A stretch of 64,000 nt of DNA from an uncultured Planctomycetota bacterium (GTDB taxonomy: Bacteria; Planctomycetota; Planctomycetia; Isosphaerales; Isosphaeraceae). The translations under genes were made by a program, and so were the position numbers. This document shows, piece by piece, positions 3,601 to 49,032 of this stretch. How positions within the stretch are numbered: position 1 is the stretch's first letter; each line of letters starts with the position of its first letter. The notes beneath the pieces are model-generated. The model made no database searches. It worked only from the letters and a program-made list of their open reading frames with translations, and was not told the DNA's origin. The stretch spans positions 512,001 to 576,000 of the forward strand of contig CAVTTN010000002.1 in NCBI GenBank assembly GCA_963737655.1. The letters are read 5' to 3'.

Positions 3601-6600
3601 GATGGTGACGCCGGTCTCGGTCGGCGTGAGGTCGAAGATCGGGTTGGTGACGTCGGTCACGTCGTCGTTGTTGAACTGGCCGCTATCGCTGGCGGCCTCC
3701 AGGACCGGCGGAGGGGCGGTGCCGGGGGCGGTCAGGTCGATGTCGAGCTGGTAGGCGCCGCTGGTGCTGGCGTTGCCGGCCAGGTCGGTGGCCCGGACCT
3801 CCAGGCTGTAGATCCCCTCGTTCAGGGGCGAGGTGGGCTGGAGCGAGAAGGTGCCGTCGGCCAGGGCCGTGCCGGTGGCCAGGACGTTCGACGGGTTGGA
3901 GGCGTCGAAGAGGACCAGGGCGGCCCCGGCCTCGGTCTTGCCGGTGATCCGGGGCTGCTGGTTGCTGGTGATCCCGTCTCCCTTGGTCCCCGTATCGTCG
4001 TTGGGGTTGATCCCGAGGTTGTTGGGGACCACGGGCGGGGTGGTGTCGATGGTGACGGGCAGGAAGCTGCTGGCCGTTCCGGGGTTGCCGGCGAGGTCGA
4101 TCTCCTGGGCTTCGTAGTCGTAAACCCCGTCCGGCGTGGGCGTTGGCAGGTTCGTGTCGATCACGTTGCCGGTGCCGACCCGGGTGCCGACGACCTGGAA
4201 CGCCCCGGTCCCGCCGTGGACCCGTCGCAGGAGGTTCACGGTGGCCGTGGTCTCGGTCGAGGTCACGGCGAAGGCCGGCAGGGTGGACTTGGTGGTGTTG
4301 TCGGTGTTGCTGGCGCCGGTGTCGGTCGCGTCGGTGAGGTCCGGGATGGTGGGCACGCCGGGGGCGATGTTGTCGAAGGTGACGATCGTGGTCACCAGGC
4401 CCGGGAGCACGCCGGGATTGCCGGCGGCGTCGGTCTCCTGGACCGAGTAGATGTACACGCCGTTGGCCGGGGCCGAGGGGTCCTGGAGCATCCCGCTGCC
4501 GGTGATCGGGGTGCCCACGGCGACGTAGACGGGGTTGGACGACTGCGGGGCCCGGAAGAGCTGGACCGAGACGGTCGATTCGCTGGCCACGACGTCGAAG
4601 AAGGGGGCCTTGGCGTTGGTGTACTCGTCGGTGTTGCTCGGGCCGCTGTCGCTCTTGGCGTCGAGGACCAGGCTCAGGGCGGAGGCCGGCGCGGTCGTAT
4701 CGATGGTCACGACCAGGGCGGAACTCGGGGACGAGGTGTTGCCGGCGAGGTCCATTTCCTGGGAGGCGTAGTCGTACACGCCATCGATCGGGACGTTGCT
4801 GGCCAGGGTGATGTCGGTCAGGGCGACCGACTTGAGCGAGCCCGTCAGGGCCGCGGAGTTGACGACCACGTAGGCCGGCGGCTTGCCGCTGGTGACGTGG
4901 GGCCGCCGGAGGAGCTGGAGGACGCCGGTCGTCTCGGTCGGGGTGATGTCGAAGACCGGGGCGGTGGCCGAGGTGACGTTGTCCTTGTTGCTCGGGCCCG
5001 TGTCGCTGGCGTCTTCCAGGTCGGGCGTGGTGGGGGTGAGCGGCGGGGTGGTGTCGATGGTGACGGTCAGGGGGTCGCTGAAGGGCCCGGGATTGCCGGC
5101 CTGGTCGATTTCCATGAACGCATAGTTATACACGCCGTCCGGGGGGTTCTGGAGGGCGAGCTGGGTATCCTGGAGCCGGCGGCTGGCCGAGCTGGTGGGG
5201 CTGCCCACGCTGGTGGCCACGGCCAGCGTGTAATTGGTGTCGGTGGCGAGCTTCCGGAACAGGACGACGGTGGCCGAGGCCTCGGTCGAGACCATGTCGA
5301 AGAACGGCGCCGTGTTCTTGGTGATCCTGTCCGAGTTGCTGGAGCCGGTGTCGCTGGCCGATTCCAGGACCGGCGGGTTGAGCGGCTTCGAGGGGGGCGT
5401 GATGTCCACGAGGATCGTCAAGTTGGGGCTGGGCAGGCTGATGTTGCCGGCCACGTCCTCCTGCTCGACGAAGTAGGTGTGGGACCCGCCGGAGAGGGTC
5501 CGCTTGTCCTGGATCGTGACCGTGCCGGAGCCGGTGGCGGTGGCGATCGGCGTCCCGGGCATCGTGGAGTCGAACAGCATGACCAGCGCCCCGGGCTCGA
5601 TGCCGGTGACGTCGATATAGGGGCTGGTCACATTCGTGTAGTTGTCGTTCGGGTCGTAGCCGCTGTCGCTGCCGCCCGGGGCGGGCAGGTTATGGTCGAG
5701 GGTCGGCGTGTTGGGGGCGCCCGGCGGGGTGGTGTCCAGGGTGAAGCTGAACAGGGTGATGTTGCCCTTGGTGCCCGACTGGTCGGTGGCCTGGACGCCG
5801 ATGGTCTTCACGCCGTCGGTGGCGAAGGCCGTGGTGACCTGGACCGAGAAGTGCCCCGCGGCGTCGGTGAAGCCGCTGCCGATCTTGGGCGGCGGCTGGA
5901 TGCTCGGGTCCGTCTCGTCGTAGAGGTCGATCTGGACCACGCTCCCGAAGGCCGCGCCCTGCTCCGAGAGGCCCGCGATGAACGGCGTGGGATCGTTGGT
6001 CTTGCGGTCGTTATTGAGCAAGCCGGTGTCGCTGCCGCCGGGAGGGGGGTTCTTCGGGTCCAGGCCGATCGAGGTGGGGAAGACGATCGGGGCCAGGCGG
6101 ATGGTGAAGGCGCCCCGGCCGTAGGTGGTGGCGTAGAGGACGTCCGGGCCCTGGGAGATGTCGGGCCTTCCGGTGGTCGGGTCGATCGGGCCGAGGACCA
6201 GGTTCAGGCTGGTGACCAGGGCGTTGGGCAGGCCGCCGCCGTCGCCCGGAGGGCTGGGGGTCTGGTCGGTGCCGTTGGGGTCGGCCGAGGGGAAGATCGT
6301 CCAGGTCTGGCCGCCGTCGAGCGACCGGAACACCCCGCCCTCGCCGCCCACGTAGAGGACCGGGTGGCTCGATCCGGTGGGGTTGGCCGGGTTGTCCGGG
6401 ATGATGTACCGCCAGTCGGCCTGGACCGAGGTGAAGTCCTTGAGCCGGGAGGCCAGCTGCATCATCGACGGGGCGCTGCCGAAGAACGGCTCGGTGATGT
6501 TGAAGAGGTTGCCGGTGATGTTCACCCAGGTCGCGCCGGCGGCCGTGGAGTCCACCATGTGGTAGACGCCCTTGCTCGTCACGGCGTAGGCCTCGTGGCT

Positions 6601-9600
6601 ACCTCGGGTCGGGTTGGTCACGATCTGCTGGATGGACGAGCCGTCCAGGCCGGCCGAGAGGTTCTTCCACTGGTCGCCGTTCTGGCCGCCGCCGGTGAAG
6701 GTGACGAAGAGGTCGCCGTTGGTCGTCCCGGCGTAGACGAAGTTGTCCAGGTTGCCCAGCCCGGCCGGCCCGTTGGGGTCCGGGGCCCCGTAGGCCAGGG
6801 CCTGGGCGTTGGAGCCGTCCAGGGCCGAGGGCTTGCCGATCAGGCTCCAGAACTTGCCGTCGGTCTCGGTGCTGTAGACCGACCCGTTGAACGAGCTCAT
6901 GATGACCTGTTCGCCCGTCAGCGGGTTGACGGCGAAGTTGAACCCCATGCGGAACGGCCATTGGGGGTCGGTCACGTCGAAGATCGGGCCGGTGTTGGGG
7001 TCCTTCTGGCCGCCGCCGTTGGCGTTGATCAGCTGGTTCGTGCGGCTGTTGCCGTCGAGCTGGAAGAAGTCCGAGACGACGCCGTTGTCGGTCTCGGCCG
7101 GGACCTCGAAGCGGTAGACCGAGCCGTATTGCGAGCTGCCCGGCCCGGTCTGGACGACGGCGATCCCGGCGCCGGTGCCGAGGTAGGTGGCGTTGCCGGT
7201 GGACCAGGTGATGTCGCCGTAGCCGGCCTGGCCGGGCTGGATCACGTTGGCGTTGGCGAAGGGGAAGCCGGTCCCGTTGGTGGTCCCGTAGAACATCCCC
7301 TTGAGGAACGAGGCGTTGGCCGCGAGGTTGGACGGCTCGGCGGCCCCGTAGAAGAACTGGGTGGTCTGGAGGTTGCCGTTCCTGGACCCGCTGGCGATCG
7401 GGATGTCGCCCTTGTCGGTGGCGAGGTTGGTGGTCGAGCCGAGGCTGCCGATCAGGCCGCCCTTGCCGTTATCGACGGCCGTGAACACGCCGTCGTCGTC
7501 GCCGAAGATCAGCCGGGTCTTGCCGGTGACCGGGTCCTTCATCGAGATGATCTGATGAATGCCCCGGGTCGGGACGCTCCAGGGGTCGGCGGCGTTGGTG
7601 TCGAAGGTCGAGGGCTGGAGGGCCTGGTCGAACGGAGTCCACGTGGCCTTGGCCCCGGAGTTGGAGAACGCCAGGAGGTTGGTCACCGGGATGGTGGCCG
7701 CGGTGAGGAACGGGCTCCTCGGGTTGACCAGCAGGTTCAGGTACGGGTTGTAGACCGGGCTGAACGGCGAGGTCGTGCCGTTGCCGGCGTTGGCCGCCCC
7801 GGGGGCGGAGATCAGGACCGGGCCGGAGGCCGTCGTCGAGTTCAGCGTGGGGTAGTTCTCCCACTGGCCCCGCTGGCCGCCGGTCTGGAGGTTCGCCGCC
7901 AGGGGGGCGGTGCCCTCGGGGTCGGTGTTCGACACGTAGAAGGCGTGCGGGTCGGCCAGGCCGGTCGTGTCGATCCGCAGGAGGCCCGAGGTCTGGTACT
8001 GGTCGGTCCCGCCGAGGTACAGGACGTTGGGGTTGCTGGGATCGACGGTCAGGGCCAGGTCGAAGTTGCCCAGGCCGAAGTTGTCCAGGTTCGGGTCGGC
8101 CGGGTCTTGGATGTCGGGCGCCTCGCCGTAGGGCGTCTCTTCGCCGGCGGGGTCGTAGTCATCGTAGGTGTCGTTGTTGGTCGGGACCTTCGGCTCGTTG
8201 TGGTCGCCGAGGGTGTCCACGGAGAGCTGGATCCGGGTCCAGTTCTGGCCGAAGTCCTTGGTCACGTACACGCCGTCGAGGTGGCCACCGGCGACGAGCT
8301 GATTGTCGGTGGTGACCTGGCTGGGCGTGCTGATCACGGCCGCGTAGAGCCAGCCCTCGTACAGGACGTCCTGGAGGGGGTTGCCGGTCAGCGCCGGCTT
8401 GGCCAGGACGATCTTGCCCTTGGGCGTGGCCGGCGAGATCGAGTTGGGCGTGGCGAGCTTGGAGAAGTCCGAGGCGGAGGAGAGGACCGGGACCGGCTGG
8501 GTCGGGGTCGAGTCGAAGCTGCGGATCAGCGGGTCGCCCAGGGCCCCGGTCATCAGGTTGAAGACCTGCCCCTGGTTCGGGCTGGAATAGACGCCGTCGC
8601 CCTGGAAGGCGGCGTAGAGGATCTGGAGGTTGCCGTTGGGGGCGCCGGTGCCGCTATTCTGGTCGAGGATGACGTCGGTGGCCTGGCCGGCCTTCATCCG
8701 GGTCCAGGTGTTGCCGGAGTCCTCCGACCGCCAGATCCCGCCGGAGATGCCGGTGCCGCTCACGGCGTTGCCGTTGACGTCCACGTCGGCCATCGCGGCG
8801 TAGACGATCACGTTGCCGCTGGTCGTCGGCGTCGGGTCCACGGTGATCTTGTAGCCGACGGTGCCGAAGCCGACCTGCTTGCCGGTGGAGTCGGTCAGGC
8901 CGCTGAAGTCGTGCTTCCTGAGCGACGAGTTGATCGGCAGGAGGTTGCCCTGGGCGTCCACGTTGGTGGCCGAATCCAGGAGGGTCCAGGTCGCCCCGCC
9001 GTCCTCGGAACGAAGGATGCCGATGCCCCGGGTCGAGAGCGACGAGGTGTCGCCGCGGGTCGGGGCGCCGTCGGCCCGGGTGCTGGGGACCTCGACGCCC
9101 AGGGCGTTGGGGTCGCCCGTGGTGGCGAAGAGGATCGACTGGTTCGGGTCGTTGTTCCGGCCGAAGATGGCGATCGACCCGATGTTCATCCCGAGGGTCG
9201 GGCCGAAGTCGGTCAGGGGCACGTAGGTCGGCCCGACCGGCGAGGTGGTGAGGAAGTCGGTCGTCTTCCAGATCCCGCCGGAGGCCGCGCCGATGTAGAC
9301 CGTGTTGCCCGAGGGGTCCGAGGGGTCCACCGCGATGGCGTTGACCCGGCCGGAGACCTGGGCGTTGAGCCCTTCGCCCTGGGCGCCGATCCCCGCCGGG
9401 CCGACGGCCGTCCAGGTGTCCGAGGCCAGGGGGTTGGTGGGGTTCTGGACGAAGATCCGGAACGTCCCGGTGAACTGGTCGGCCACGGACTCGCCCAGGC
9501 CGGTCAGCGGCACGGGCTTGCCCAGGTTGAGCGTCCAGTTGTTGATCGTCCCGGTCTTCCCGGTCTCGCTGTCGACGATCCGCAGGATCCAGGTGCCGGC

Positions 9601-12600
9601 GGCGGCCCGGCCCTTCAGGACGCTCAGGGGGAACTGCGGGTTGAACGTCCCGAAGAAGTCGGGCCCGCCGTTCTGGATCGGCGTGGTGGCCGTGTCGTCG
9701 AAGGTCGTCGAGTTGAAGTTCGCCTTGGTCCCGGTGGCGCCGACCCCGCTGAAGAGCTGGACCGTCGTGCCGTCGGGCGCGATCAGGTAGCCGGTCAGGG
9801 CCGGGTCGTTGGCGTAGGTCACCGAGATCGTCAGCGTGACGTTCTGGACGACGAAGTTATCCGGGACGACCAGCTTCGAGTCGGTCGTGCTGTTGGCGCC
9901 GGGGATCGCCGGCGAGTAGCCGTTGGGCGTCTTGTAGGTGACGGTCACCGTCCCGGCCGACGGGTCGCCCCGGAGCATGTCCAGCCCGGCGTTCTCGTTG
10001 GTGTCGAGGTAGTCGCCGGTGGACGAGCGGATCTTGGTCGGGTCGAGCGTGACGGTGTACGTCCCGCTGAGCTGCTGGGTCGGGAACGAGACGTAATAGG
10101 TGTTCGCCGGGGCGCTGTTGTCCAGGTCCTGGGCGATCATGTACGGGCCGGAGATCAGGCCGCTGGGCCCCATGACCCTCAGGACGGCCCCGCTGCTCAT
10201 CAGGCTGGCGGTGTCCATGGCCCGGTCGAACGTGATGGCCAGCCGCGAGACGGTCTGGTCGGTCACGAGGTTGTCGGGCGTGGGCAGGACCCCGGGGACG
10301 AACGTGTTGATCACGTGGGGGCCGGGGACGATCAACGGCTGGGTCGTCCGGTCGAACGGCGGGGCGAAGACGGTCCCGCTGAAGGTCGTCGGCGACAGGG
10401 GGGTGGGCGTGGGGTCGGCGTAGATGTCCCCCGGCGAGGTGCCGAGGAACGGCGACGACCTCGGGTCCTCGCCCGTGGTCCCGTCGCTGTTCTGGTCCAT
10501 CTGGTTGCCCGAGACGATCGTCCCGGTCGAGGTGACCGAGCGGATGCGGTCGGTGATCGACGGCCCGACCTCGTAGCTGTACGTCCCGGTCTTGCCCTGG
10601 GGCGTCGCGAAGAAGATCAGGAACCGCGTCGGGCCCTGGGCCGTGTTGCCTTCCAAAAGGGGGATGATCGCGCCGGGCCCGCTGGCGATCGGGACGTTCA
10701 CCCCGGCGGCGAACCCGGAGGTGGTCACGCTGCGATACGTCACCGAGATGTTCGCCGCCGAGAGGCTCCCCGGGTCGATCGGCCGGTCGAACTGGACGAC
10801 GAACCCGTTGACCAGGGCGGTCCCGTCGGCGACCCCGGGCACGCCCACGGCCCGGGTGTTGTTGTAGCTGACCGGGGTGCCGTCCAGGGCGTGGACGGTC
10901 TGGCCCAGGGTGGGCGTCGAGGTGCCGGGCGCGACGCTCGGCGTGATCGGCCCCATCGTGCTGGTCACGACCCGGGGGCCGGAGGCGATCACCGCCGAGG
11001 TCACCCGGGTGTTCAGCGGCTGGAAGGTGGACGTCCCCCAGTTGTCGTTGCCGGCATAGGCCTGGTACAGGTGGCCGCCGACCAGGGCCAGGCCCTGGAA
11101 GTCGCCGTAGCCGGTCGGCGGCTTGAACGGCGTCCCGAACCACGGCTGGTTGGCCGCGGGCGACTCGTTGTCGGGGATCGGCCCGAGCGTGACGGGCTGG
11201 CCGGTGATCCCGTCGGTGACGACCTGCGGGTCGTTCACGAACGTCTCGGGCGAGAACGTGGCCCCGCCGTCGATGCTCAGGCCCACGTAGGTCGCCACCA
11301 GCGCCCTCTGCGGGTCGTTCCGGGCGTCCTGGAAGGAGACGGCGAGCGTCCCGGTGGTCGGGTCGACGGCCACCGCCGGCTTGAACTGCGGGCGGCCGTA
11401 GGTGACCGTGACCCCGTCGAACTGGCCGGTGTACGAGTCGGAGAACCCGTCGGTCATCGCGTTGTCGTCGTTGACGATCTGGGGCGAGGACCAGGTCGCG
11501 CCCCCGTCGTCGGAGTACTTCAGCGTGATGTCCGTGTTGTCGTAGATCAGCGCCCCGCTGAAGTCCTTGGTGTCGCGGGTCACGTAGGCGGCGTAGATCC
11601 GGCCCTGGTACGGGCTGAACGAGCCGAGGGTGTTGTCCGAGGCGATCACCGGGGCCGGCGCGATCCCCCCCGGGTCCACGCCGGTGAAGGTCGCGAGGTT
11701 GTAGCCGCCGAGCAGGGCGCCGGACTGGCTGATCACGTACGGTCCGGTCAGGTCCACGGCCTTGACCACGGTCCCGGTCAGCCGCCCGCCGACGTCGGTC
11801 GTGTCAACGATCGTGTCCTTGCCGCCGGTCATGTTCGAGGAGAAGTCCAGGCCCCAGTCCAGGAGCCTCTGCATCGGCGTGGTGAGCTTCGAGCCGCTGA
11901 AGTCGGTGATCTCCAGCCGCCACGTCCCGTTGATCGACGCCCGGCCCAGGCCGTAGAACGCGGTGAGGTCCGGCCCGGCCGCCAGGTTGTTCTTGGTGTC
12001 GAGCAGCTGCGTGTCGGGGCGGAAGGCGCCGACGAACGGCGTCTTGTACATCGCGTTGTCGATCGAACGGGGAGCTTCCTCGTCGAAGACCGTGTCGATG
12101 GTGAAGTACGGGTTGCCGTTGGGGTCGAGCGGCCCGAGCAGGCCGAGGCCGAGGCCGACGCCCGCGTTGGCGAAGATCCCGGTCTCTCCGGGGTGGAGGG
12201 CCGGGTTGCGGATCAGGGGGATCCGCGTCCCGTCGGGGCCGACCAGGTCGATCTCGACGTTCTGCAGGCCGTCGGGCAGCGCCAGGCTGACCCGGACATC
12301 GACGTGCGAGACCGTCGTGAACCTCGGGTCGGTGATGTTCACCGACAGGGGGAACGACGAGGTCACCGGGGTGGTCCCGAGCTCCGTCTGGCCGACGATC
12401 GCGTTGTGGTAGTCCTTCACGTCGTAGGTCGAGGTGGCGCTGTAGCTGACGCCGGCCTGGACGTGGTCGGTCGTGATCGTGTCGTAGTTGAAGGCCGGGG
12501 CGATCCGGAAGTCCTGCGAGCCGAACTCGTCCCAGATCACCGAGACCTGGCCGGCGGGGATGCCGGGGTCGCCGGCGTAGTTCGTGTTGGGCAGGCGGCC

Positions 12601-15600
12601 CTGGCTGATGGTGATCTTCGGCGCGGCGTCGAGCTCGCCGTTGGGGCCGAGGAACTTGGTGTCGTCGAGCACCTCGGGCGGGGTGAACGACGAGGCGCCG
12701 TCGGACGACCCGGTCAGGACGATCGCGGCGACCTGGTCGGTCTTCTCGCTGTGGGTGTCGCCCAGCTCGTTGGTGGCCCAGGCGATGTAGACGTTGTTCG
12801 AGAAGGCGTCGTTCTGGGCCTTGCCGGTGGTCGGGTCGGTGAAGGCGGCGGCCTGGGCCTGGTTGAACGCGGTGCCGATCGGCATCCCGGTCAGCGAGTC
12901 GAAGGCCATGACCCGGTCGTTGAGCGAGTCGGTCACGTAGATCCGGCCGCGGAGGGCGTCGTAGGCGATCCCCTTCGGCGCGTTCAGGCCGGCGGTCGTG
13001 GCCACCAGCGTCTTGCTGAAGGCGCCGGTGTTGGCGTCGAAGACCAGGACGTTGTCGCTGGTCTGGCCGACGACGAACAGGTTCCCGCCGTTGAACGCCA
13101 GGCCGTCGGGGCCGATCAGCCCGTGGCCCTGGGCGGCGATGTTGAGGAACTGGCCGTTCAGGCCGTAGCGGAGGACTTCGTTGTTGTTGAAGCTGCTGAC
13201 GTAGAGCGTGCCGTCGGGCCCGAACCGGAGGGCCGAGGGGTTGCTCAGGCCGCCCGCCCGGGGCTGGACGAACGTCTCCACATACTCGCCGGTCACGCCG
13301 TCCAGGACGACCACGCGGTCATCCGAGGCGTCGGCGGCGAAGAGGTCGGGCCGGCCGTCGCCATTGACGTCCGGCCCCCAGGCCAGCCCGGTGTAGATGG
13401 CCGTGGGGGCGAGGGGGGCGAGGAACGTGCCGGTCGGGTCGTACTTGATGACCTGGTTGGTGTCCCGGCTGGAGACGTAGAGGGAGCCGTCGGCGCCGAC
13501 GGCCAGGCCGTCGGCGCTCTCCAGGCCGCCGGAGCCTCGGGCCACGATCGCCGAGACGAACGCGCCGGTGCCGGCGGCGTACTTCAGGACGCGGTTGTCC
13601 TGGAGGCTGCCGGCGGCGACCTGGGGATCGACGAAGGACGGCAGGACGGCCCCGCTGACGACCAGGAGGTTGCCGGCCGAGTCGAAGGCCAGGTCCACCG
13701 GGCCATCCAGGCCGCCGCTCTGCGGGGTGACGAAGACCTGATCGAAGGCGCCGGTGTTGGGCTTGTACCTCAGGACCGAGTCGGTCGCGAAGCTGCCGAC
13801 GTAGAGGTAGCCGGTCGTCTTGTCGAAGGCCAACCCCGTCGCCCCGGCCAGGCCGCCGGAACCGGCCGAGACGTAGTTGCCCAGGTAGGCCCCGGTGGTG
13901 ATGGCGAACTTCAGGACCTTGCTCGATGCGGCGGTGCCGGTGCCGTAATCGGCCACGTAGAGGTTGCCGTCGGGCCCGACGGTGATCCCCTCGGCGTGGA
14001 GCAGGTTGCCTCCCCCGGAGGGCACCAGGGCGTCCAGGAACAGGCCGGTCTTGGCGTCGAACCGGAGGATCTGCGAGGGGTCCTTGGCCAGGAGGCCTCG
14101 GGGGTCGGTCACCGGGTTGAACGTCGAGCTGGCGACGAACAGGTAGCGGCCGTCGGCCGAGAACGCCAGGCCCTGGGGCTTGGACAGGCCGCCGCTCAGC
14201 GGGGCGATGAACGTGCCGAGGAGGGCCCCGGTCGTCGGGTTATACCGGACGATGCTGTTCGTGCCCGGGCTGGAGACGTAGAGCAGGCCGTCCGGGCCGA
14301 TCGTCTCGAATCCGGGATCGACCGGAGGGGCGACGACCAGGTCACCCTGGGGCAGGCCGGTGGTGGCGTCGAACCTCAACACATTGTCCGAGCCGGCGCT
14401 GGAGACCAGGAGCTTGAGGGCGCCGGTGCTATCGGCGGCGAAGACCAAGCCGTCGGGCTTCGAGAGGGTCTGGCTGCCCTCGGGCACGGCGGTCTTGACC
14501 AGGTTCCCCTTGGCGTCGGGAAGGAGCTGGATGGTGTAGTTGGCGGCGACGAAGTCGGTCTGGAGCCGGCCGGAGGTGTCGTACTTGAGGACGGCGTCGG
14601 TCGCGGCCGAGGAGACGTACATGTTCCCGGCGGCGTCGAAGGCGATCCGCTGGGGCTGGCCGAGGGGGCCCGGGGTGAAGTTGCCGAGGGGCTCGCCGGT
14701 GGTGGTGGTGTAGGCCAGGATCTGGTTGGTGCCGAAGCTGGCGACGAGCATCCCGGTCGGCGTGAAGACGATCGATTCGGGCTGGAACAGGCCGTCCCGG
14801 TTGGGCTTGACGATCACGTCGATGAACGAGCCGGTCGAGCCGTTGTAGCGGATGACCTGATCGTTGGCGAGGTCCGTGACGTAGAGGGTGCCGCCGGAGT
14901 CGAAGCCCAGGCCCTGGGCGGCGCCCAGCCCGCCGGCGCCGGCCTTGACGAAGACGGCCCCGGTGTTGCCCGGGGCGGGGTCGGCCACCCCGGCCGAGGT
15001 GAACCGGAACACGCCCGAGCCCGAGGCCACATACAGGTTGCCCGACGCATCGACGATCAGGCCCTCGGCCGGGCCGCCGAGGCTCCCGGCCGGGACGAAT
15101 GTCGCCCCGCCGTTGCCGGCGGAAGGCAGGGGGGTGCCGGCCGCCGCCTTGAACCGGAGCACCTGGCTCCCGCTGGAGACGTACAGGTTGCCCGAGGCGT
15201 CGAACGCCAGCCCCTCGGGCACCGTCAGCCCGCCGGAGCCGGCCTGGACGAAGATGCCGAGGTACGCCCCGGTGATCAGGTTGTACTTGAGGACCTGGCC
15301 CATCCCGCCCGGCCCGGTGCTGGCCACGTACAGGTTGTGGTCCAGGGGGCTGATGGCCATCGCCTGGGGGCCGATCAGGCCGCCCGAACCTCGGTAGATG
15401 AACGCATCGACGAACGCCCCGGTCGCCCCGTCGAACCGGAGGACCTCGTTATTCTGCTGGTTGGCCACGTAGATCAGGCCGTTGGGATACTGCGAAGCCA
15501 GGGCCCCGAGCTGCGAGGCCTTCACGTACAGGACCGCCGTCGGCGTCTCCAGGTTCTCGGAGTTGGCCTGCTGGATGAACATGCCGTTGGCCGCCGAGTA

Positions 15601-18600
15601 TTGCAGGACCTGATTGGTGTCCTGGCTGGCGACGTAGAGGCTGCCGTTGGAGAAGGTCAGGCCGATCGGCGTGACCAGCCCTCGGGGCGTGAACGGCCCG
15701 ATGAAGATCCCGTTGGGGTCGTAGGCCAGGACCACGTTGGTGTCCCGGCTGGAGACCAGCAAGTCGCCGTTGGGCGCGAAGACGACGCCCTGGGGGGTCG
15801 TCAGGTCGCCGGCCCCGGTCGGGACGAAGTGATCGATGAACAGCCCGGTGTTGCCGTCGTAGCGGAGGACCTCGTTCGTGCCGGCGCTGGAGACGTAGAG
15901 GTTGCCGTCCGGGCCGAAGACCAGACCCTGGGGCTTGGCCAAGCCGCCGGAGCCGGGCGTCACGAAGACCGAGTTGAACTGGAACGTGTTGATGTTGTAG
16001 GACAGGACGTCGTTCGAGCCGCCGTCGCTGACCATCAGCAGGGCGGAGTTGTTCGGGTCCAGCGCCACGTCCTCGGGGCTGGCCAGGGTCGGCGGGTTGA
16101 GGTTGCCGACCGGGGCCCCGGTCGTGTCGTAGGCCAGGACGTTGTTGGACCCGAAGCTGGAGAGCAGGAAGGCGTTCCGGGCCGGGTCGAAGGTGAAGCC
16201 CGTGGGGGTGTTCAGGCCGCCGGCGCCGGAGGCGATGAAGGTGCCCAGGAACTTGCCGTCGTTGGCGTTGAATAGCAGGCTGTATTCCAGGACGCTGCTG
16301 GTCCCCTGGCTGGCGACCAGGAGGACCTGGGTCGGCGTCCCCGCGACGGACACCGTGGCGACCTGCATCCGCTCGGGGATCGACAAACCACCGTTATTGG
16401 CGGTGCCGACCAGGACCGTCAGCGTGTTGGTGCCGATCACGTAGCGAAAGACTTCGCTGTTGCCGCCGTCGTCGATGTAGAGCTGGCCGCTGGCGTCGAA
16501 CAGGAGGCCGGTGGGGGACTTGATCCCGGAGTTCGGCGCGAGCAGGTAGGCGGTCCCGGCGTTGGCCGTGACGGTCGAGGGCAGGGGGGCCCGGTCTTGC
16601 CGTCGAAGCGGTCGACCGAGCCGTTGATCGAGTCGGACACGTAGAGGTTGCCGTCGGGCCCGAAGATCAGGCCATCGGGCGAGGCCGGGGCGACGGTCAC
16701 GGCCCCGCTATCGACGAACACGCCGAGGTAGGCGCCGGTCGTGGCGTCGAACTTGAGGATCTGGCCGGTCCCCTGGCTGCCCACATACAGCGTGTTGTCG
16801 CCGGAGGGGCCGAAGGTCATCCCCTTGGGCGAGCTCAGGCCGCCCGAGCCCTTGGCGACGAAGATCCCGAGGAACGCGCCGGTCTTGCCGTCGTACTCCA
16901 GGACCTCGTTGTTGGTCTGGCTGGCGACGTAGGCGTTGCCGTTGGGGCCGATCACGACCTCCTCGGGGCCGAGCAGGGCCTCGGGGTCGGTGTAGCCGAG
17001 GAACGCGCCGGTCGTGGCGTCGTAGCGGAAGATCCGGCCCGAGGTGTTGCCGGCGACGTACAGGGTGCCGTCGCCCGAGTTGTTCGTCGGGTTGATCGTC
17101 AGGCCGTCGGGGCCGTGGACCGGGGGCGGGGTGAAGCCGTAGACCCCGGGGAGGGTGAAGACGTTCTGGCCGGTGGCCGAGTACTTGAAGACCTGGCCGT
17201 TGGCTTGCCCGACGACGAAGAGATTGCCCGAGGCGTCCAGGACCAGGCCGCTGGGCGTGGCGATCCCCGACTCGCCGGAGGGGACCAGCGAGGCCCCCTT
17301 CAGCCCGGGGCCGGGCAGCGCCTTGCCGGCCTTGGTCACCGGGTCGTAGGCGAACCTCAGGACCGAGTTGGTCCCCTGGCTGACCACGTCGAGGTTCCCG
17401 CCGGAGTCGAAGGCGATGCCAACGGGACTGGTCAGGCCGTTGGCGCCCGAGGCGACGTAGGCCCGGACGAACGCGCCGGTGGCGGCGGCGTACTCCAGGA
17501 CCTGGCCGGTCAGGTTGCTGGCGACGTAGAGGTCGCCCTTGGAGTCGAAGGCCAGGCCCTCGGGCCCGTTCAGGCCGCCGGAGCCGGCCTTGACGAAGAC
17601 CCCGGTGCCCACCGGGTTGCCGTTCGAGTCGTACCTCAGGACCTCGTCGGTGTTCTGGCTACCCACGTAGACGTTGCCCGAGGCGTCGACGGCCAGGCCC
17701 TCGGGCAGCCCGAGCTCGCCCCCGGAGTTGACGAACACGCCGAGTAACGCGCCGGTCGTCGCGTTGTACTTGAGGACCTGGTTGGTCGCGTGGCTGCTCA
17801 CGTAGAGCACCCCGTTGGCGAACAGGATGCCCTCCGGGGCCTTCAGGCCGCCGTTGAGCGTCGGGTCCGACGGGATGAACGACTTCAGGAACGCGCCGGT
17901 CTTGCCGTCGTACTGGTTGACCTCGTTGCCGTCCCGGCTGGTCACGTACAGGTTGCCGTCGGGGCCGATGGCGTCGAACTGAGGGGCGTGGAGCGGGTCG
18001 GGGATGAACACGCCCTGATAGGCGCCGGTCGTCGCGTTGTACTGCAACACCTGGTCGGTCGCGTAGCTGCTGACCAGCAGGAGGTTGCCGTCGAAGGTGA
18101 TCCCCCGGGGCTGGGTCAGGCCGCCATTGAGCGCCGGGTTGCCCGAGACGAACACCTTGACGAACTTGCCGGTCTTGCCGTCGTACTCGATGACCTCGTT
18201 GCCGTCGCGGCTGGCGACGAACAGGTCGCCGTTGGGGCCGAAGACGGCCCCCTCCGGGGCGTCCAGGGGCTCGGGCGTGAAGGTCCCGATCAGGGAGCCG
18301 GTCGTCCCGCTGTACTCGATCACCCTCTCGGTCTTTGAGCTGGTGACGTAGAGGTTGCCCTGGTAGAACGCCAGGCCCTGGGGGCCGCTGAGCTTGCCGT
18401 TGAGCGTCGGGTCTCCCGAGACGAAGACGCTCGTGCCCTTGGGCAGGCCGGCGATCGGCTGGCCGGTCTTGCCGTTGAAGACCAGCACCTTGTTGTCGAA
18501 CCCGTTGCCGACGAAGAGGTCGGAGTAGCCGTCGCCGCTGACGTCCGTGCCGAAGGCGATCCCCTCGGGCTCGTTCAGCCCGGCGCTGCCGGAGGCGACG

Positions 18601-24127: not shown

Positions 24128-24787
24128 ATGAACGTGATCGAGACCGAATTGCCGGGCGTGGTGATCGTCGAGCCCCGGGTCTTCCGGGACGATCGGGGCT
24201 ACTTCCTGGAGACCTGGAACGGGGCGAGATATGCCTCGGCCGGCCTGCCGGATCGGTTCGTCCAGGACAACCTCTCGTTCTCGACCCGAGGCGTCCTCCG
24301 AGGGCTTCACTACCAGCATCCCCACGGCCAGGGGAAGCTGGTCTCGGTCGTCCGGGGCGAGGTGTTCGACGTCGCGGTGGACGTCCGCCTCGGCTCGCCG
24401 AGCTTCGGCAAGTGGGTGGGCGTCACCCTCTCGGCCGAGACCGGGCGAGAGCTGTACATCCCGCCCGGATTCGCCCACGGGTTCGTGGTCCGGGGCGATT
24501 CGGCCCTGTTCAGCTACAAATGCACCGAGTATTACCAGCCGGAGAGCGAGGCCAGCCTCGCCTGGGACGACCCCGACCTGGCGATCGCCTGGCCCGAGGA
24601 CGCGCCGAGGCTCTCGCCCAAGGACGCCGCCGCCCCTCGCCTGCGAGACGTCCCGACCGACCGCCTTCCCGTCTACCACGAAGGCCGGACCCGGGCCGAG
24701 CACGGCCACGACGCGAACCTTCTCCGACCGGCCGCCCTCCGATCCCGAGTCCTGGCCGCCCGGCCCGAGGGCCTCGCCAACTCCTGA
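24128..24787 (+). CDS. rfbC: dTDP-4-dehydrorhamnose 3,5-epimerase
   Basis: DDRGYFLE, FVQDNLSFS, GVLRGLHYQ, QGKLV, DVAVDVR, IPPGFAHGF, YKC; the C-terminal tail is longer than usual. Confidence 0.95.
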   Translation: MNVIETELPGVVIVEPRVFRDDRGYFLETWNGARYASAGLPDRFVQDNLSFSTRGVLRGLHYQHPHGQGKLVSVVRGEVFDVAVDVRLGSPSFGKWVGVTLSAETGRELYIPPGFAHGFVVRGDSALFSYKCTEYYQPESEASLAWDDPDLAIAWPEDAPRLSPKDAAAPRLRDVPTDRLPVYHEGRTRAEHGHDANLLRPAALRSRVLAARPEGLANS

Positions 24788-24884
24788 GCCGCCCGCGAAC
24801 CCAACGGACGCCGGCAGGAGGGGGCTTCCTTCCCCCTCCTCCGCCTGATAAGATTCCACCATCGCCGCTCGACGCGATCTCCTC

Positions 24885-24958
<74 letters not shown>

Positions 24959-25271
24959 CTTTTAAGATCGTGTCGCCAAAGGACTTGTGGCGATCTTGAG
25001 AAAACGACTTTCGCCCTAGTGCCGGTCGTTCACAAGATTTCACAAAACCGAACCCAGGCCGTCACGATTCACGGAGAGCCGGTAGCGGGAGCTTTCCCCG
25101 GTCATGGGGACGCTCCCGCTCTTTTTTGAAGCGGGCCAACGGCTGCCCATCACCAGGCGACACCCCCGTCCGTGCCGGATGGGGACGCTCTCCGGTCAAT
25201 TGAGGCAAGAGGACAGCCCGCCCAGGGCTCTCTGCTCACTGGCGTGAGCGGCCACCCCACGACCGGGGTCC

Positions 25272-26693
25272 TCAACTCGCCCGGACATCTCGCTTCTCCA
25301 GTTCGGCGGCGATCTGCGAGGCGAGCGACCAGTTGCGGTTGGCGATGGCGGCGTCCAGCCTCTCTCGCAGGGGGTCGATCCCCGGCTCGGTTAACCCGTA
25401 CCTCTCGGCCACCGCCGGGGGCAGGCTGGCGGCGATCCGGCGGAAGGTCCGGTTGCTCTTGGCCCGCATCTCGTCGTCGGTCTCCTTGACGTAGCTCGTC
25501 ATCATCACGCCCTCGCCCAGGCGGGCGTCGGAGGAGACCTGGCGGTTCAGGTCCTCCCCGCTGCGGGCGTACTGGAGGCTGGTCTTGCGGAAGATGTGCA
25601 GGTAGGCAGGCCCCTTGGGGAGGGACCTCGACCAGGCGATCACCCGCTCGTAGAACCAGTCGCCGAGGTTCTCCGGCTGGAACTGCCCGGCCACCCGCAG
25701 CGCCATCCAGGGGCGTCGGCCCGCCTCGTGGAACCGCCGCAACTGGTCGTTGTAGGCGGCGAACACGAAGGGGCTCGTCGTCCTCGACGAGAGCAACTCC
25801 TGGTAGAGGGGCTCGGGGATGCGGAACCACTTGTCGATGCCCCACTTGCCGATGATCTTGAAGTGGTGCTCGCTCCCGATGACCTTCAGGTCTTCCCACT
25901 TCAGGCCCATGACCTCGCTCTTGCGGCCCCAGGACCAGAGGCAGACCTTGGCGACCGAGGCGGCGACGGTGACGCCGGGCCATTCGGAGCCGAGGTAGTC
26001 CAGCAGCGAGATCAACTCCTCGGCGTCGAACTGGCGGATCGGCTTGTCGTATCCCTCGATCCACGAGAACTTCCGCCACGGGTTTTCCGTGAGCAGGAGG
26101 GCGTCATCGACCACGCCCCGGACGCACTTCTTCGCCGGGGCATTCCGGTTGGCCCGCTCGAACGCCGCCTGGAGGGCGACCGACCACTTGATGACCGTGT
26201 TCGGGCTGAGCGTTCCGACCCCTTGCCTGCTCTTCGGGTACAGCGACCTCCAGTTCTTCGGCTTCGTGAGGGCCTGGGTCTGGAATTTCTCGCAGTCGGC
26301 GGCGGTGGCCGTCGTGATCGGGAAGATCCCGAGGATCGCCCGGAACGCCGAGATCGCCTCCAGGCACGCCGCCAGCGATTTCTCGGCCCGCTTCTGTGCG
26401 TCCTGCGACTTCCGCTTGGCGAAGTGGCGGCGCTGGATCTCCTCGAATTCCTCGTCACCGAGGACCGTCCGAGCGACCAACGCCTTCTTCCCGCCGTTCT
26501 TGAGCATGTCCCCGACGATCGTGATCGCCTCGCCGACGGTCGCCGCCCCCGTGGATCGGCTCGCCTTGAGGCCGGGCCAGTAGGCGTACCAGGAGGTCCG
26601 GGAGCCGCCGGGTGGATGCAGCACGACGGTGACGGGCGAGCCGCCCACGACCACGGTGATCTTCTTCTTCGTCTCCTTGGTTTTCCTCGGCAT
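25272..26693 (-). CDS. tyrosine recombinase / integrase (473 aa)
   Basis: WGRKSEVMGLKWED (catalytic R), IIGK (K), HIFRKT (HxxR), MMTSYV (Y); adjacent to a tRNA. Confidence 0.88.
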   Translation of the reverse strand: MPRKTKETKKKITVVVGGSPVTVVLHPPGGSRTSWYAYWPGLKASRSTGAATVGEAITIVGDMLKNGGKKALVARTVLGDEEFEEIQRRHFAKRKSQDAQKRAEKSLAACLEAISAFRAILGIFPITTATAADCEKFQTQALTKPKNWRSLYPKSRQGVGTLSPNTVIKWSVALQAAFERANRNAPAKKCVRGVVDDALLLTENPWRKFSWIEGYDKPIRQFDAEELISLLDYLGSEWPGVTVAASVAKVCLWSWGRKSEVMGLKWEDLKVIGSEHHFKIIGKWGIDKWFRIPEPLYQELLSSRTTSPFVFAAYNDQLRRFHEAGRRPWMALRVAGQFQPENLGDWFYERVIAWSRSLPKGPAYLHIFRKTSLQYARSGEDLNRQVSSDARLGEGVMMTSYVKETDDEMRAKSNRTFRRIAASLPPAVAERYGLTEPGIDPLRERLDAAIANRNWSLASQIAAELEKRDVRAS

Positions 26694-26761
26694 CCCGTCC
26701 CCTCTTCGAGTTGATTCGGCCCTCGCCGAAATCCTATTGGGCAGGCAAGCGTCGCCCGTCT

Positions 26762-27652
26762 TCAACGGGCGGCGATCCAGGCGTCGATGGCACCACGGTG
26801 GAACTTCCAGGGCTTGCCGTCGCCCGTACCCAGGACGAGGCAACCCAAAGGGATCTTTCCCTGCCGGGCCAGGTCGGCGATCCATGTCGTGGTGCAGCCC
26901 AGGCGACCGGCGACGTACGACGAGTCCACGATGTCGGGAGGAGGCGGGTCCATGACATCGGCGATCCGCCTGATGTCGGCGATGAGCGACGAGAGGTCGG
27001 GGTGTGAGGGCAGCGGCGGGACGGCCAGGTGGCGACTCTGTTTCCCTGCGAGGCCATCCAGGAACTCATCGACTTGCGTCTCGGTGATCCTGATCGAGCC
27101 GTCTTTAATGCGATGTACAGGAAGGCCCTCGGACACCATCACCTCGAAGTCCGCCGCACCCATCGTGAAGAGGTTGCAGAACTCATCCTTCGTCCAAACT
27201 TGCCCTACTCCCTTGCGGCCAGACGGCCTGATGAACTCCAGAGTCTCGCCATGCCCGAGCAGGTGGTTCTCGGAGACGGCGTGGCCTCCGATCATTGCGA
27301 TAGCGTCGGGGGCGATGTTGAAAAGGCCGGACACTTCGTGACGAACTCGACCCACGTCCTGACCCCCGAGCGGAAGGACGTCCTCGTTCGCCCCGTGGAT
27401 GACGCAGACCAGGCCCGGCTCGGAGGCCGGGACTTCGAGGCGTTTCCGGGAGGCGACCATGCGTCCGGCATGTGCCTCCACCTCCTCGGGGCTGGCGAAT
27501 CCCGACTCGAACAGGCGGAAGGGTGGGCGGACCGTTGCCGCTGAATCGTGGTTATCACTTCTTGCATCTCCGGCTGAACCCGATCGATCATGTTCCATCC
27601 GTCGAAACCCTCGTTTATGGCGGAACTCACACGCCGTAGGCTCGATTGCCAT
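26762..27652 (-). CDS. excisionase-like protein: ubiquitin-like (beta-grasp) domain plus two MerR/HTH_17-type HTH domains
   Basis: C-terminal VAGRLGCTTTWIADLARQGKIP...WKFHRGAIDAW; middle WTKDEFC...GLPVHR...IRITETQVDEFL; upstream FNIAPDAIAMIGGHAV...LGHGETLEFIRPSGRKG; start uncertain (27652 or 27598). Confidence 0.7.
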   Translation of the reverse strand: MAIEPTACEFRHKRGFRRMEHDRSGSAGDARSDNHDSAATVRPPFRLFESGFASPEEVEAHAGRMVASRKRLEVPASEPGLVCVIHGANEDVLPLGGQDVGRVRHEVSGLFNIAPDAIAMIGGHAVSENHLLGHGETLEFIRPSGRKGVGQVWTKDEFCNLFTMGAADFEVMVSEGLPVHRIKDGSIRITETQVDEFLDGLAGKQSRHLAVPPLPSHPDLSSLIADIRRIADVMDPPPPDIVDSSYVAGRLGCTTTWIADLARQGKIPLGCLVLGTGDGKPWKFHRGAIDAWIAAR

Positions 27653-27674
27653 ATCGTTCGCCTGCGACCCGGCC

Positions 27675-28602
27675 TCAAGCGAGCCCCGCAGGGAGCAATC
27701 CCTCGTCACGCAACTCGGAGATCCGCCGATAGAAGCCTGCCCGGCTCCCTCCCGTCCGCTCCTTCCATTCCCTGACCCGCTCCTGCTTGCCGTCGTTGGA
27801 GGCCCAGATATCCAGGGCGATTCGCCTCTCCACTTCGAGCCGCTCGGACCGGCTGATGTCGTTGGTGGGGTGCTTCGGCTCGAAGAGTTCCTGGCGGATC
27901 GATGCTTCGACAAGATCCTTCCAGTGGCTCTCGCTCTGCCTCGCCTCCCAAAGCTGGTAGTCTCGCAGCGCCTTGTCCACGAACAGCCTCAGGCTGGGAC
28001 GCAACTCGTACTCGTGCAGGCGATTCAGCAGGTGGCCGAGCACCTGGACGCAGGATCTCGGCGGTATTCCGTGGTGCCCTCTGGCTGCGATGGAATGCAT
28101 CAGGGCGACCATCTGCTCGTCGCTCGGCTCGTAGTGGATCACATGCACCCGATCCCGGAGGGCTCGGGTCACTTCTCCGTGGTGGCCCGCCAGCGGCAGG
28201 TTGCTGATGCCGATGATCGCCCCCCTGAAGGCGATGACCATATCGTCGCCCGACTTCTTGTAGCGGACGTAACGCACGTTCGTCCCGTCGTGGCTGTTAC
28301 CCAGGGCGGCAAGGAGGATCTGGAGGGCGATCGGGGCGTTGAAGGTCTGCTGGATGTCGTCCAGGACGATGATCCGGTCGTGGTTCTCGGCGAGAAGTTC
28401 GAACAGTCCCTTCGGCGTCAGGATGACCGTTGCTGTAGGCGTGTTGGACGGCCAAGTGGTCGAGCGTGGACCGGACGGTGTAGGTCTTGCTCGTGCCGGG
28501 GCGACCGTGCAGATAGACGCCGGTCGCCTTCCTGTGGATGCAGGCACGCACCCGGTCCCTAACGATCGTGAGGCTCTGTTCGAGCGACTGGAGGTGGTTC
28601 AC
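27675..28602 (-). CDS. P-loop NTPase (AAA-like) with C-terminal HTH; frameshifted at ~28421
   Basis: GTG after GGAG; Walker A GRPGTSKT in one frame, then (NGH)LTPKGLFELL, Walker B IIVLDD and GGSRAGFYRR in the next frame; one extra base joins them. Confidence 0.75.
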
Positions 28603-28769
28603 GGTGCAGTCTCCGTTCTCAGATTTCTCACTATTCCGAAGTGAGACGGAGAGGGCCGTCTCAGCAGTACGGACACCCGTCGGTTCAAGGCATTCCTCCG
28701 AAGGAGCCAGTGGGCCGGACCGTGGCCGCTTGCCCTCATGTCTCAACGCCGCCAAGCCTGTCGGATCGG

Positions 28770-29534
28770 CTACCCGCTCCGTAAGAGTTGCCGGGCCGTG
28801 TCGCAATAAGCCCGGTCGATCTCGACCAGTGTGCAGTCCTGGATTCCCAGCCGCAGGCAGGCCCGCCCCGTGTTGCCGATCCCGGCGAAGGGGTCCAGGA
28901 CCTTCAGGTCGGGGCGGACGCCGTGCAGGCGTAGGCATCGCTCCGGCAACTCGGGCGGGAAGATGGCGGGATGCGGTGCTTGACCTTTCCTCGGGACGTG
29001 CGGGATGGGCCAGATCGAGCCGCCGCAGCACCGTTCCCGTTCAGGCGACCAGCGATCCCGATTGGAATCGGACCGTGGGCGTCCGACGCCTTCGGCGTAC
29101 TTGTCGATCGGGCGTCTCCCGGTGTGAGAGAACAGGTAGACGAATTCGTGATGCTTGTCCGGTTGGTACGGCGATTGGCCGGGCCGGAACTGACCACGCT
29201 GGGTGCCGTCCTGGTCGGGGAGTGACTTGGCCCAGATCACCTCGAATTGCTCGACGAGATACTGGGATGCGATGGCACGCAGGTCGTCCGTCAGGGTCGG
29301 GTTCCTGGCGAAGTCGCCGATCTGTAGCCAGAATGTGCCTTCCGGGTGCAGGACCCGAGCGACTTCTCGCAGCCAGAGATCGCACCACGACAGGAACTCC
29401 CTGCGAGGACGTCGATCGTTGTACCTGGAGTAGCGGACTGCGAGGTTGTACGGAGGGCTGGTGACGATCACGTCTACGGAAGCATCGTCCACCCTCATCA
29501 AGTATTCCGTACTATCGGCGTTGATGACCCGCAT
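28770..29534 (-). CDS. beta-class N4-C/N6-A DNA methyltransferase
   Basis: Motif IV VTSPPYN near the N-terminus; HPAIFPPELP; motif I VLDPFAGIG near the C-terminus. Confidence 0.92.
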   Translation of the reverse strand: MRVINADSTEYLMRVDDASVDVIVTSPPYNLAVRYSRYNDRRPRREFLSWCDLWLREVARVLHPEGTFWLQIGDFARNPTLTDDLRAIASQYLVEQFEVIWAKSLPDQDGTQRGQFRPGQSPYQPDKHHEFVYLFSHTGRRPIDKYAEGVGRPRSDSNRDRWSPERERCCGGSIWPIPHVPRKGQAPHPAIFPPELPERCLRLHGVRPDLKVLDPFAGIGNTGRACLRLGIQDCTLVEIDRAYCDTARQLLRSG

Positions 29535-48329: not shown

Positions 48330-48579
48330 CGGTCTCTTGCCCCTCGGAACAGGTTGTCGCCCTCGATTTTCCCCGACATGAGTCCCGTGGCGACAAATTT
48401 TTTGGGAAAGCTCGCCGCAGCTTACGTGCCGAGCTTCGGACTTCGGGCCGGGCAGACCGCAAAGATGCCGGGTCGTCCTGCGAACCGAACCGACCCCGAT
48501 CCTGTCCGACGGAGGAGGCTTCGTGGACAGTCGGATCGATCGTCAAGCTCGGGTGAGCCTCCCGATCGGAGGCAATTTC

Positions 48580-49032
48580 GTGGAAGCCGTGGTCTTCATA
48601 GGGCTGCAAGGGGCGGGGAAGTCCACGTTCTGCCGGGAACGCTTCTTCCACAGCCACGTCCGCATCAGCCTGGACATGCTGAAGACCCGCCATAGAGAGG
48701 GTCGTCTGCTGCGAGCCTGCGTCGAGGGCCTCCAGCCCTTCGTCGTGGACAACACGAACCCCACGAGGGCCGAGCGGGCGATATACATCGGGGCAGCACG
48801 GGATGCCGGGTTCCGGGTCGTCGGGTACTACTTCCGGTCCCGAGTCGAGGATTGCCAGCGACGGAACGAGCGGCGATCGGCGGATCAGAGGGTGCCGCTG
48901 AAGGGTATTCTCGGGACGGCGGGCAGGTTGGAACTTCCCACGTTGGACGAGGGGTTCGACGAACTCCGCTACGTCAGGATCGACGAGTCGGTTGGCTTCG
49001 TGGTCGAAGGGTGGCGTGATGAAGATCGATGA
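48580..49032 (+). CDS. P-loop polynucleotide-kinase-like protein (AAA_33)
   Basis: GGAGG RBS; IGLQGAGKST, ISLD, VVDNTN, RNERR. Confidence 0.88.
   Translation: MEAVVFIGLQGAGKSTFCRERFFHSHVRISLDMLKTRHREGRLLRACVEGLQPFVVDNTNPTRAERAIYIGAARDAGFRVVGYYFRSRVEDCQRRNERRSADQRVPLKGILGTAGRLELPTLDEGFDELRYVRIDESVGFVVEGWRDEDR

Follow-up and report, generated by a model that had tools for sequence, protein, structure and literature searches.

The ubiquitin-like proteins (Ubls) of bacteria have so far been placed in sulfur transfer or in conjugation operons of the Bil, Bub and cyclic-oligonucleotide-based antiphage signalling system (CBASS) types, in which the Ubl stands free or is fused to enzymes of its own system. 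In eukaryotes, polyubiquitin and ubiquitin-fusion genes are made of head-to-tail repeats closed by a short C-terminal cap, or carry a Ubl ahead of unrelated proteins. The sulfur carriers ThiS and MoaD (PF02597) have a beta-grasp fold, a last strand with a hydrophobic-Glu-Phe pattern and a tail that ends in G-G. Among the conjugation operons, those of the Bil type are reported in PMC11601603 to follow the order BilA-BilB-BilC-BilD (Ubl-E2-JAB-E1). For the Bub systems a Ubl-E2 fusion, BubAB, is described in which the JAB domain of BubCD makes its cut right behind a conserved Gly (bioRxiv 10.1101/2024.11.21.623953). Here we describe a gene in a stretch of 64,000 nucleotides, called the window below (genome C2:512001-576000; contig CAVTTN010000002.1 of GenBank assembly GCA_963737655.1), from an uncultured planctomycete of the family Isosphaeraceae. 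Its predicted product joins a Ubl domain with an intact Gly-ending tail to two helix-turn-helix (HTH) domains, and the gene lies beside an integrase gene at one end of a genomic island.

The window protein shares with BubAB of the Type I operons an N-terminal Ubl, a conserved Gly and a second functional domain. The partner in BubAB is an E2, whereas here it is a pair of HTH_17 domains; Bub operons bring a JAB-E1 and a DUF6527 protein, none of which occurs among the scanned open reading frames (ORFs) of this locus and island; and the setting is a conjugation operon in the former and an integrase module in the latter. A full-text literature search covering journals outside subscription returned, in the text accessible to it, no description of a Ubl fused to an excisionase or to a recombination directionality factor (RDF). 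In their accessible text, supplementary tables aside, neither Iyer et al. 2006 (PMC1779556) nor Burroughs et al. 2007 (PMC1949818) mentions HTH, excisionase or integrase; “DNA-binding” appears twice in the latter, in a figure legend and in the reference list, and neither instance concerns a bacterial HTH fusion. The 2024 survey of bacterial Ubls (PMC11601603) lists N-terminal additions and, again in its accessible text and supplementary tables aside, no C-terminal DNA-binding partner.

The gene spans 26762..27598 on the minus strand and encodes 278 amino acids (aa) plus a stop codon. These limits are those of the database gene call (P0002), with the start MEHDRSG, at which the closest homologue of equal length also begins (27598). 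A preliminary description of the window had taken the same minus-strand ORF from 27652; its translation is as quoted there, with the database start lying 18 codons inside. The upstream ATG at 27652 would give a product of 296 aa, with 18 extra residues, and since the preceding ORF terminates at 27675, either start is possible. The G+C content (GC) at the three codon positions is 0.68/0.48/0.76. The protein has 47 homologues at E<=1e-3 and 687 in a representative library, so the observation exceeds what chance would provide.

An AlphaFold2 model of the whole protein (32-row alignment) reached a mean predicted local distance difference test score (pLDDT) of 82.6 and a predicted template modelling score (pTM) of 0.45, the latter in agreement with domains that have no fixed mutual arrangement. 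In the modelled layout, a disordered start leads into a helix (residues 37-55) and then into a strand-strand-helix-strand-strand unit (64-123). Two winged HTHs (134-191 and 223-277) follow, separated by a further helix (202-216). The N-terminal extension (residues 1-58; 27425..27598, minus strand), with its single predicted helix (37-55), occurs in the alignment within the closest subfamily only; its pLDDT is 44-47 for residues 1-30 and climbs to 66-87 for residues 31-60.

The beta-grasp unit occupies residues 62-130 (27209..27415, minus strand). The preliminary description had recognised it as a ThiS/MoaD-like pattern at 27412-27209, of which the end at 27209 holds, while the start is one codon off: the stretch VCVIHGAN...SGRKG corresponds to residues 64-130, encoded at 27409-27209. 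A separate AlphaFold2 model of a 76-aa segment (63-row alignment) showed beta-grasp topology with a pLDDT of 91.5 and a pTM of 0.79, the elements being, in segment numbering, strands 7-11 and 14-18, a helix 25-36, and strands 43-46 and 62-66. When this model was compared by VIA-align with 48,161 representative chains, the best 50 matches were all beta-grasp Ubls (Z 7.1-8.7, with 11 chains at Z>=8), among them TINCR (8.7), Mth1743 (8.5), MoaD (7.8-8.0), TtuB (7.5) and a bacterial E1-E2-Ubl complex (7.3), together with SUMO, ISG15, ubiquitin and a ThiS-like chain. A Z of 7-8 may by itself reflect a common arrangement; the Ubl assignment is made because the matches are uniformly Ubls and span the whole domain. 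Foldseek, which had been suggested as a check, gave for the whole model domain-sized rows (65-98 columns) that are mostly Ubl or TGS chains at weak E values (~1e-2); its list also contains long low-TM rows to unrelated large chains, as well as double-HTH or MerR-type chains (TraN 4p0y, NmlR 5d90). The modelling confirms the predicted fold of the segment as a beta-grasp ubiquitin-like domain, as had been proposed.

At the level of sequence, the 76-aa segment matched no Pfam family at E<=10, a homologue search with it alone recovered just one truncated fused relative, and a Protein Atlas search with residues 58-185 gave no usable match. The link to known families comes through a relative with four copies of the domain (P0057), which scored 40.8 bits against ThiS (PF02597; cut-off 22.5) and 41.8 bits against TGS, also above threshold; against sequences of the PDB it returned chance-level rows only (E 0.15-0.19). 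Relatives with one copy gave weak matches to ThiS or TGS, those to ThiS in P0021, L050 and L054. The window protein has in common with ThiS and MoaD the beta-grasp, the hydrophobic-Glu-Phe last strand and a tail that ends in Gly, and differs from them in that its tail is G-x-K-G instead of G-G, is internal, and belongs to a domain that itself lacks a Pfam match.

This tail, G-R-K-G at residues 127-130 (27209..27220, minus strand), is better conserved than any other feature of the domain and is a candidate site of processing or recognition. Four columns, and no others, are invariant in the domain alignment of 63 sequences: F65, G70, K72 and G73 (segment numbering), which correspond to the Phe of the last strand and to the G-x-K-G motif. 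A profile derived from the alignment found 84 domains in 80 of 188 proteins; most of these sequences are contained in the profile itself, which makes the detection circular and leaves the count of the motif unaffected. Among these fused relatives, 82 of the 84 domains reach the tail and 76 of the 82 keep G-x-K-G. The Gly-ending junction noted in the preliminary description is thus conserved; in the other 6 domains the last Gly is S, A or E, and the Lys never varies. In the domain model the tail has the lowest pLDDT (59), which points to a flexible tail, as would be expected, and G127-R-K-G130 runs past the last strand as a flexible Gly tail. The motif does not lie at a free C-terminus or before a short propeptide, as it does in the free-standing relatives, but is followed by 148 residues after Gly130. 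A role of G-x-K-G in the DNA contact of the HTH was considered and rejected, since free-standing forms, tandem copies and fusions without an HTH retain the motif as well.

Those free-standing relatives give the domain its context. When 401 Planctomycetota genomes were searched with the Ubl and the middle HTH, 12 of them, our own included, gave matches, which were mostly small genes. The profile of the fused domain detected free-standing genes of 67-74 aa at nine genome loci (~1e-12 to 1e-18). Eight of their products end in G-E-K-G, either bare or extended by A, AA, R or SIS, and the remaining one in S-V-K-G-A-A. Homologues of JAB and ThiF adjoin the free-standing Ubl in all seven genome loci with enough flank; the other two lie on short contigs (1,740 and 2,360 bp), and one of these still has the JAB. 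The operon order is Ubl, often an E2-like gene, JAB and ThiF/E1, and three closely related loci add a DUF6744 protein and an AAA ATPase. This is also the gene order described for the Bil operons, with a gene after the Ubl that matches Prok-E2_D weakly (23.3 bits against a cut-off of 25). PADLOC 2.0 assigns these operons neither to Bil nor to any other named system, and only their E1 matches, weakly, the CBASS E1-E2 models; the window protein itself lies outside such an operon.

At E<=0.001, a further profile, built from seven free-standing sequences, recovered 497 proteins with lengths of 36-126 aa. In 110 of the best 120, GEKG lies inside the final 12 residues and has 0-12 variable residues (mostly 1-6) after it; the remaining 10 include some longer tails, one protein that ends in GEKA and some ambiguous cases. 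Small Ubl-GEKG genes are also carried by six IMG/VR contigs that are predicted to be viral (L054-L059; 44-231 kb, GC 0.30-0.58), where the profile of the fused domain detected them at 1e-13 to 1e-21. In four of the six the protein ends exactly at the Gly, and the gene adjoins a JAB in six of six and a ThiF in three of six. Scans of viral contigs with P0057 and with the fused family found no relative. A conserved region bounded by Gly, a variable extension and a neighbouring JAB together give the free-standing forms the look of Ubl precursors, which they probably are, and the clade that they form may be a Ubl system not described before. In a FastTree phylogeny of 195 Ubl domains (82 fused and 113 free), the best split set apart 62 fused domains with 1 free one at a support of 0.0. 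Considered jointly, the architecture proposed for the window protein and the membership of its domain in this clade of G-x-K-G-tailed Ubls are very probable.

The same domain occurs in other contexts. In P0057 (277 aa), four near-identical Ubl units follow one another head-to-tail with no linkers, each ending in LEFVKEAGKKG, and five residues cap the last unit, a layout that recalls polyubiquitin. Another locus (L031:5423-8630) has three genes in a row, every one of them headed by a Ubl-GxKG domain. In the first two the domain is followed by unrelated stretches of ~150 aa that match no Pfam or PHROG family, and the third is a Ubl-HTH-HTH gene with an integrase after it. Both cases are alike to the eukaryotic polyubiquitin and ubiquitin-fusion genes in layout, while the relation in sequence is limited to the fold, and the processing would here be a putative one. 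Across the HTH fusions the Ubl and the middle HTH are constant and the C-terminal HTH_17 comes in four sequence types; some fused relatives are without the middle HTH, and in two genomes (L021, L022) the C-terminal part differs and belongs to no assigned family. The closest relative of all (L030:7866-8791; G428:C1:1553908-1554275) has its Ubl divided between two frames, with the HTH part and the integrase intact.

The preliminary description had called the protein a double-HTH excisionase. Its two Xis-type HTH domains are borne out, the C-terminal one by Pfam and the middle one by the model and by relatives. The C-terminal HTH_17 domain (residues 223-278; 26765..26932, minus strand) is the sole Pfam domain found in the product (PF12728, 32.3 bits against a cut-off of 27, E 1.2e-7), and is preceded by a helix and the motif RIAD..DPPPPD (residues 202-222). 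The middle winged HTH (residues 134-180; 27059..27199, minus strand) is a divergent HTH_17 modelled as strand-helix-helix-strand-helix; the window's own sequence reaches just E 0.23 against HTH_17, and the corresponding region of the relatives P0119, P0049 and L045 is a second HTH_17 stretch. The other half of the name fared less well, as the TIGR01764 excisionase model gave 17.7 bits, under its cut-off of 28.8. In PHROGs the protein matched phrog_66, “excisionase and transcriptional regulator” (E 3e-5). With the HTH_17 proteins of excisionase type (PF12728, TIGR01764, PHROG 66), the window protein has in common a C-terminal HTH_17 domain and a co-directional position upstream of an integrase, in an element that bears att sites; it differs from them by its two HTH domains, its Ubl and the sub-threshold TIGR01764 score. 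The label “excisionase” would follow from the HTH_17 domain and from the position of the gene, and the two HTH_17 winged helices mark the protein as a likely RDF or a regulator of int/xis functions.

The integrase lies downstream on the same strand after a gap of 68 bp (25272..26693, minus strand; 473 aa, start MPRKTKE). It is a divergent tyrosine integrase that was recognised through phrog_1 (E 1.6e-10), with no Pfam match at E<=1 except a chance-level one to LAMB1 (E 0.13). Nine homologues with 52-66% identity start at the same MPRK, and R257, K283, H366, R369 and Y401 are invariant in the family, in what appears to be the catalytic R-K-HxxR-Y pattern. The linkage predicted in the preliminary description is conserved: fused Ubl-HTH genes adjoin an integrase in all nine loci with sufficient flank, three further fused loci being too short to judge. 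Integrases of phrog_1 type stand beside the fused gene in the window and in L030, L031, L044, L045, L046, L050 and L064, on the opposite strand and convergent in L045 and L050. At L065:6255-8365 the gene that directly follows the Ubl-HTH gene encodes a large serine recombinase (phrog_95, E 8e-67), so the module of tag and HTH is not bound to tyrosine integrases. No integrase was found among the flanking genes scanned in the two variants with another C-terminal part (0/2). Linkage across unrelated recombinase families argues for a role in the control of integration or excision, and it would fit an architectural RDF and a regulator alike. That the Ubl-HTH-HTH protein acts with the integrase is, in our judgement, probable.

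Both genes lie at the tRNA-Arg end of an apparently intact island, which measures 80,015 bp from one repeat to the other. ARAGORN identified the integration target as a tRNA-Arg (ACG) gene at 24885..24959 on the plus strand, and a script run on the genome found its 3' 42 bases as a perfect direct repeat whose left copy (24917..24958, plus strand) is the attL core. The right copy is at genome C2:616932-616973, beyond the window, and no second copy occurs inside it. The stretch between the repeats has a GC of 64.1%, lower than that of the contig (68.7%). Among kin the gene is patchily distributed: the query used found it in one out of 36 other genomes from the family and in none of 3 from the genus, many of these genomes being incomplete. 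A search of sequencing runs with positions 24600-27700 of the window gave no run that contained more than 0.17 of the sequence words, and no RNA run was among the matches listed.

Pfam searches of 58 candidate ORFs, two or three of them just past the right-hand repeat, revealed no phage structural or conjugation genes. They did reveal cargo that resembles phage growth limitation (Pgl) or type-2 bacteriophage exclusion (BREX) systems, namely a NERD-kinase protein, an Eco57I-type methylase with DUF7008, PglZ, BrxC/D, DUF6079 and a DEAD helicase, as well as a Macro domain, methyltransferases, transposases and two AAA ATPases. An AAA ATPase of the island (L051:10542-12089; genome C2:586542-588089) is a full-length relative of the ATPase of the free-standing operons (29% identity over 514 aa, E 2e-56), and a closer copy of the latter (39% identity) is found elsewhere in the genome. 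At 48523-50529 of the window, within the island, an AAA_33 kinase-like gene, a gene with a Thg1 C-terminal domain (Thg1C) and an RNA ligase gene form a cluster that may be a module of RNA repair or defence.

Immediately upstream of the Ubl-HTH-HTH gene (27675-29031, minus strand) there is a gene that resembles a P-loop ATPase divided between two frames, with a Walker-A-like GRPGTSKT in the ORF 28297-29031 (weak AAA_16 match, E 0.008) and an IIVLDD stretch in the ORF 27675-28547. The layout could come from either a frameshift or an error, and no homologue of this gene was found among the related loci. Outside the island, a minus-strand open frame of ~5,250 codons, with a plus-strand mirror frame of ~5,080 codons, occupies positions 679-16440 of the window.

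No cognate enzyme for the tail was found nearby. The absence of E1, E2 and JAB genes from the window, already noted in the preliminary description, was upheld by six-frame searches of the genome with ThiF and Prok-JAB, which gave matches only at C2 3.31, 3.71 and 6.88 Mb, outside the window, and by Pfam scans of five ORFs at the locus and of the 58 ORFs of the island region, which revealed no JAB, ThiF/E1 or E2 (UQ_con was not part of the genome-wide search). In contrast to the free-standing operons, no cognate E1 or JAB was found in the window, the island, the fused loci tested or the genome. The fused-domain profile matched nothing but this gene in the 7.63-Mb genome (estimated completeness 87.7%) at E<=10, and so it misses any housekeeping ThiS or MoaD. 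The host does have a ubiquitination-like locus at genome C2 ~6,876,400-6,884,150 (L029:3434-11146), with genes for a YukD-family Ubl of 103 aa that ends in ...VVAG-SARRSR, a UQ_con E2, a ThiF E1, a Uma2 nuclease-like protein and a JAB (C2 ~6.8827-6.8841 Mb), and with two large unassigned ORFs between them. As the cognate system of the window protein this locus is unsupported, since its own Ubl is of the YukD family; it may still be a source of peptidase.

The conservation of the G-x-K-G tail points to a function for it, and we tentatively favour one in which the fused protein would be a Ubl-X pre-protein. A JAB-type Ubl peptidase acting in trans, supplied by the host or by an incoming phage or element with a Ubl-JAB-E1 module, would recognise G-x-K-G and cut after the last Gly. 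The cut would free or switch the HTH-HTH moiety, and this release would couple the control of excision and integration to the activity of a Ubl system. The reported cleavage of BubAB after its conserved Gly is a precedent that supports such processing. Nevertheless, proteolysis at G-x-K-G stays somewhat short of an even chance in our estimate, since several observations weigh against it. Tblastn searches with the JAB and E1 of the clade recovered neither of them from the window or from 12 further fused loci (E<=1e-4), and gave no match to its JAB, E1, E2-like or DUF6744 proteins in the whole genome (1e-5); the only E2-E1-JAB locus of the genome lies 6.3 Mb away, with a Ubl of another family. 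A last Gly that can be replaced next to a constant Lys is no less suited to a motif for binding than to a scissile bond, and at position x all the listed free-standing forms have E, whereas the fused ones mostly have R. The sub-threshold TIGR01764 score counts against the excisionase identity. The integrase family of the window is directly next in 10 of 14 genome loci found through C-terminal HTH_17 motifs, and most of its partner genes are short HTH_17 genes without a Ubl, which argues that the tag is an accessory. The divided Ubl frame of the closest relative would be due to decay of its tag or else to an indel in the assembly.

Cutting by a JAB-type peptidase in trans would be the single likeliest use of the tail, a tentative verdict that a permanent handle nearly equals. 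In this alternative, itself quite conceivable, the Ubl would never be cut and would serve for oligomerisation on DNA, for contacts with Ubl-tagged partners or for docking to the host, with G-x-K as the binding element. It gains from the lack of a cognate peptidase or E1 near any tested fused gene or in the genome, from the six non-Gly variants and from the invariant Lys, and the three Ubl-tagged genes in a row would suit a shared handle for assembly or docking; self-assembly of bacterial Ubls has indeed been reported (PMC11601603). A packed interface would, however, hardly be expected to outdo the core of the fold in conservation while being modelled with low confidence, and both the four-copy protein and the variable extensions after GEKG point instead to processing. 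The comparison with eukaryotes is also unfavourable, as integral UBL domains there are usually without a Gly tail. A different question is whether the HTH part is an architectural excisionase at all, or an AlpA-like transcription regulator of island genes that the Ubl modulates. The HTH_17 family takes in AlpA-type regulators as well as excisionases, a relative whose C-terminal type differs has a match to Phage_AlpA too, the name of phrog_66 covers both functions, the TIGR01764 score is low, and the two variants that swap the last HTH for another part have no adjoining integrase. We nonetheless consider a pure regulator doubtful, given the tight linkage to integrases of three kinds in 9/9 loci, one of them serine, and a C-terminal HTH type that changes in step with the integrase family.

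The presence of an AAA ATPase in three related free-standing operons, and of a full-length relative of it in the island, raises the idea of a turnover tag, through which an AAA+ unfoldase would set the half-life of the excision factor; short-lived excisionases are known, such as lambda Xis. It is an improbable one: no AAA gene turned up at the four remaining free-standing loci with flank, the closer copy of the ATPase elsewhere in the genome indicates that the family may be generic, and no Ubl receptor is known or was identified. Even less credit is due to the idea of a decoy, in which the Ubl would titrate JAB or E1 away from a Ubl system of phage or host origin, in counter-defence or cross-talk and with no part in excision. 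Free-standing Ubl-JAB-E1 modules on predicted viral contigs and a defence island as the host element would accommodate it, but the constant fusion to HTH domains and the constant linkage to integrases would be left unexplained, and we hold it to be very improbable. To return to the processed pre-protein, its boldest version would make it a sensor: the excision factor would be produced as a pre-protein of no activity or of altered activity, a JAB borne by an invading phage or element with the Ubl-E2-JAB-E1 module, or activated in the host, would cut it after G-x-K-G and free the HTH-HTH part, the defence island would excise or be re-programmed in response, and several proteins of an element (three in the locus with consecutive tagged genes) would be freed by one type of cut, as in eukaryotic ubiquitin fusions. 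This version is, as a whole, unlikely.

What is new with respect to the bacterial systems described so far is a Ubl of a conjugation clade that stands, with its tail intact, ahead of integrase-linked DNA-binding proteins and of at least two other proteins of mobile elements. If the tail is not cut, these proteins would offer a clean natural example of a bacterial “integral UBL domain” that retains its tail, a feature that would itself have to be explained. Should the tail be cut, or be read in trans, they would constitute a bacterial counterpart of the ubiquitin-fusion genes and the first link between Ubl processing and the control of site-specific recombination, in which case ubiquitin-type processing may control when the island moves.

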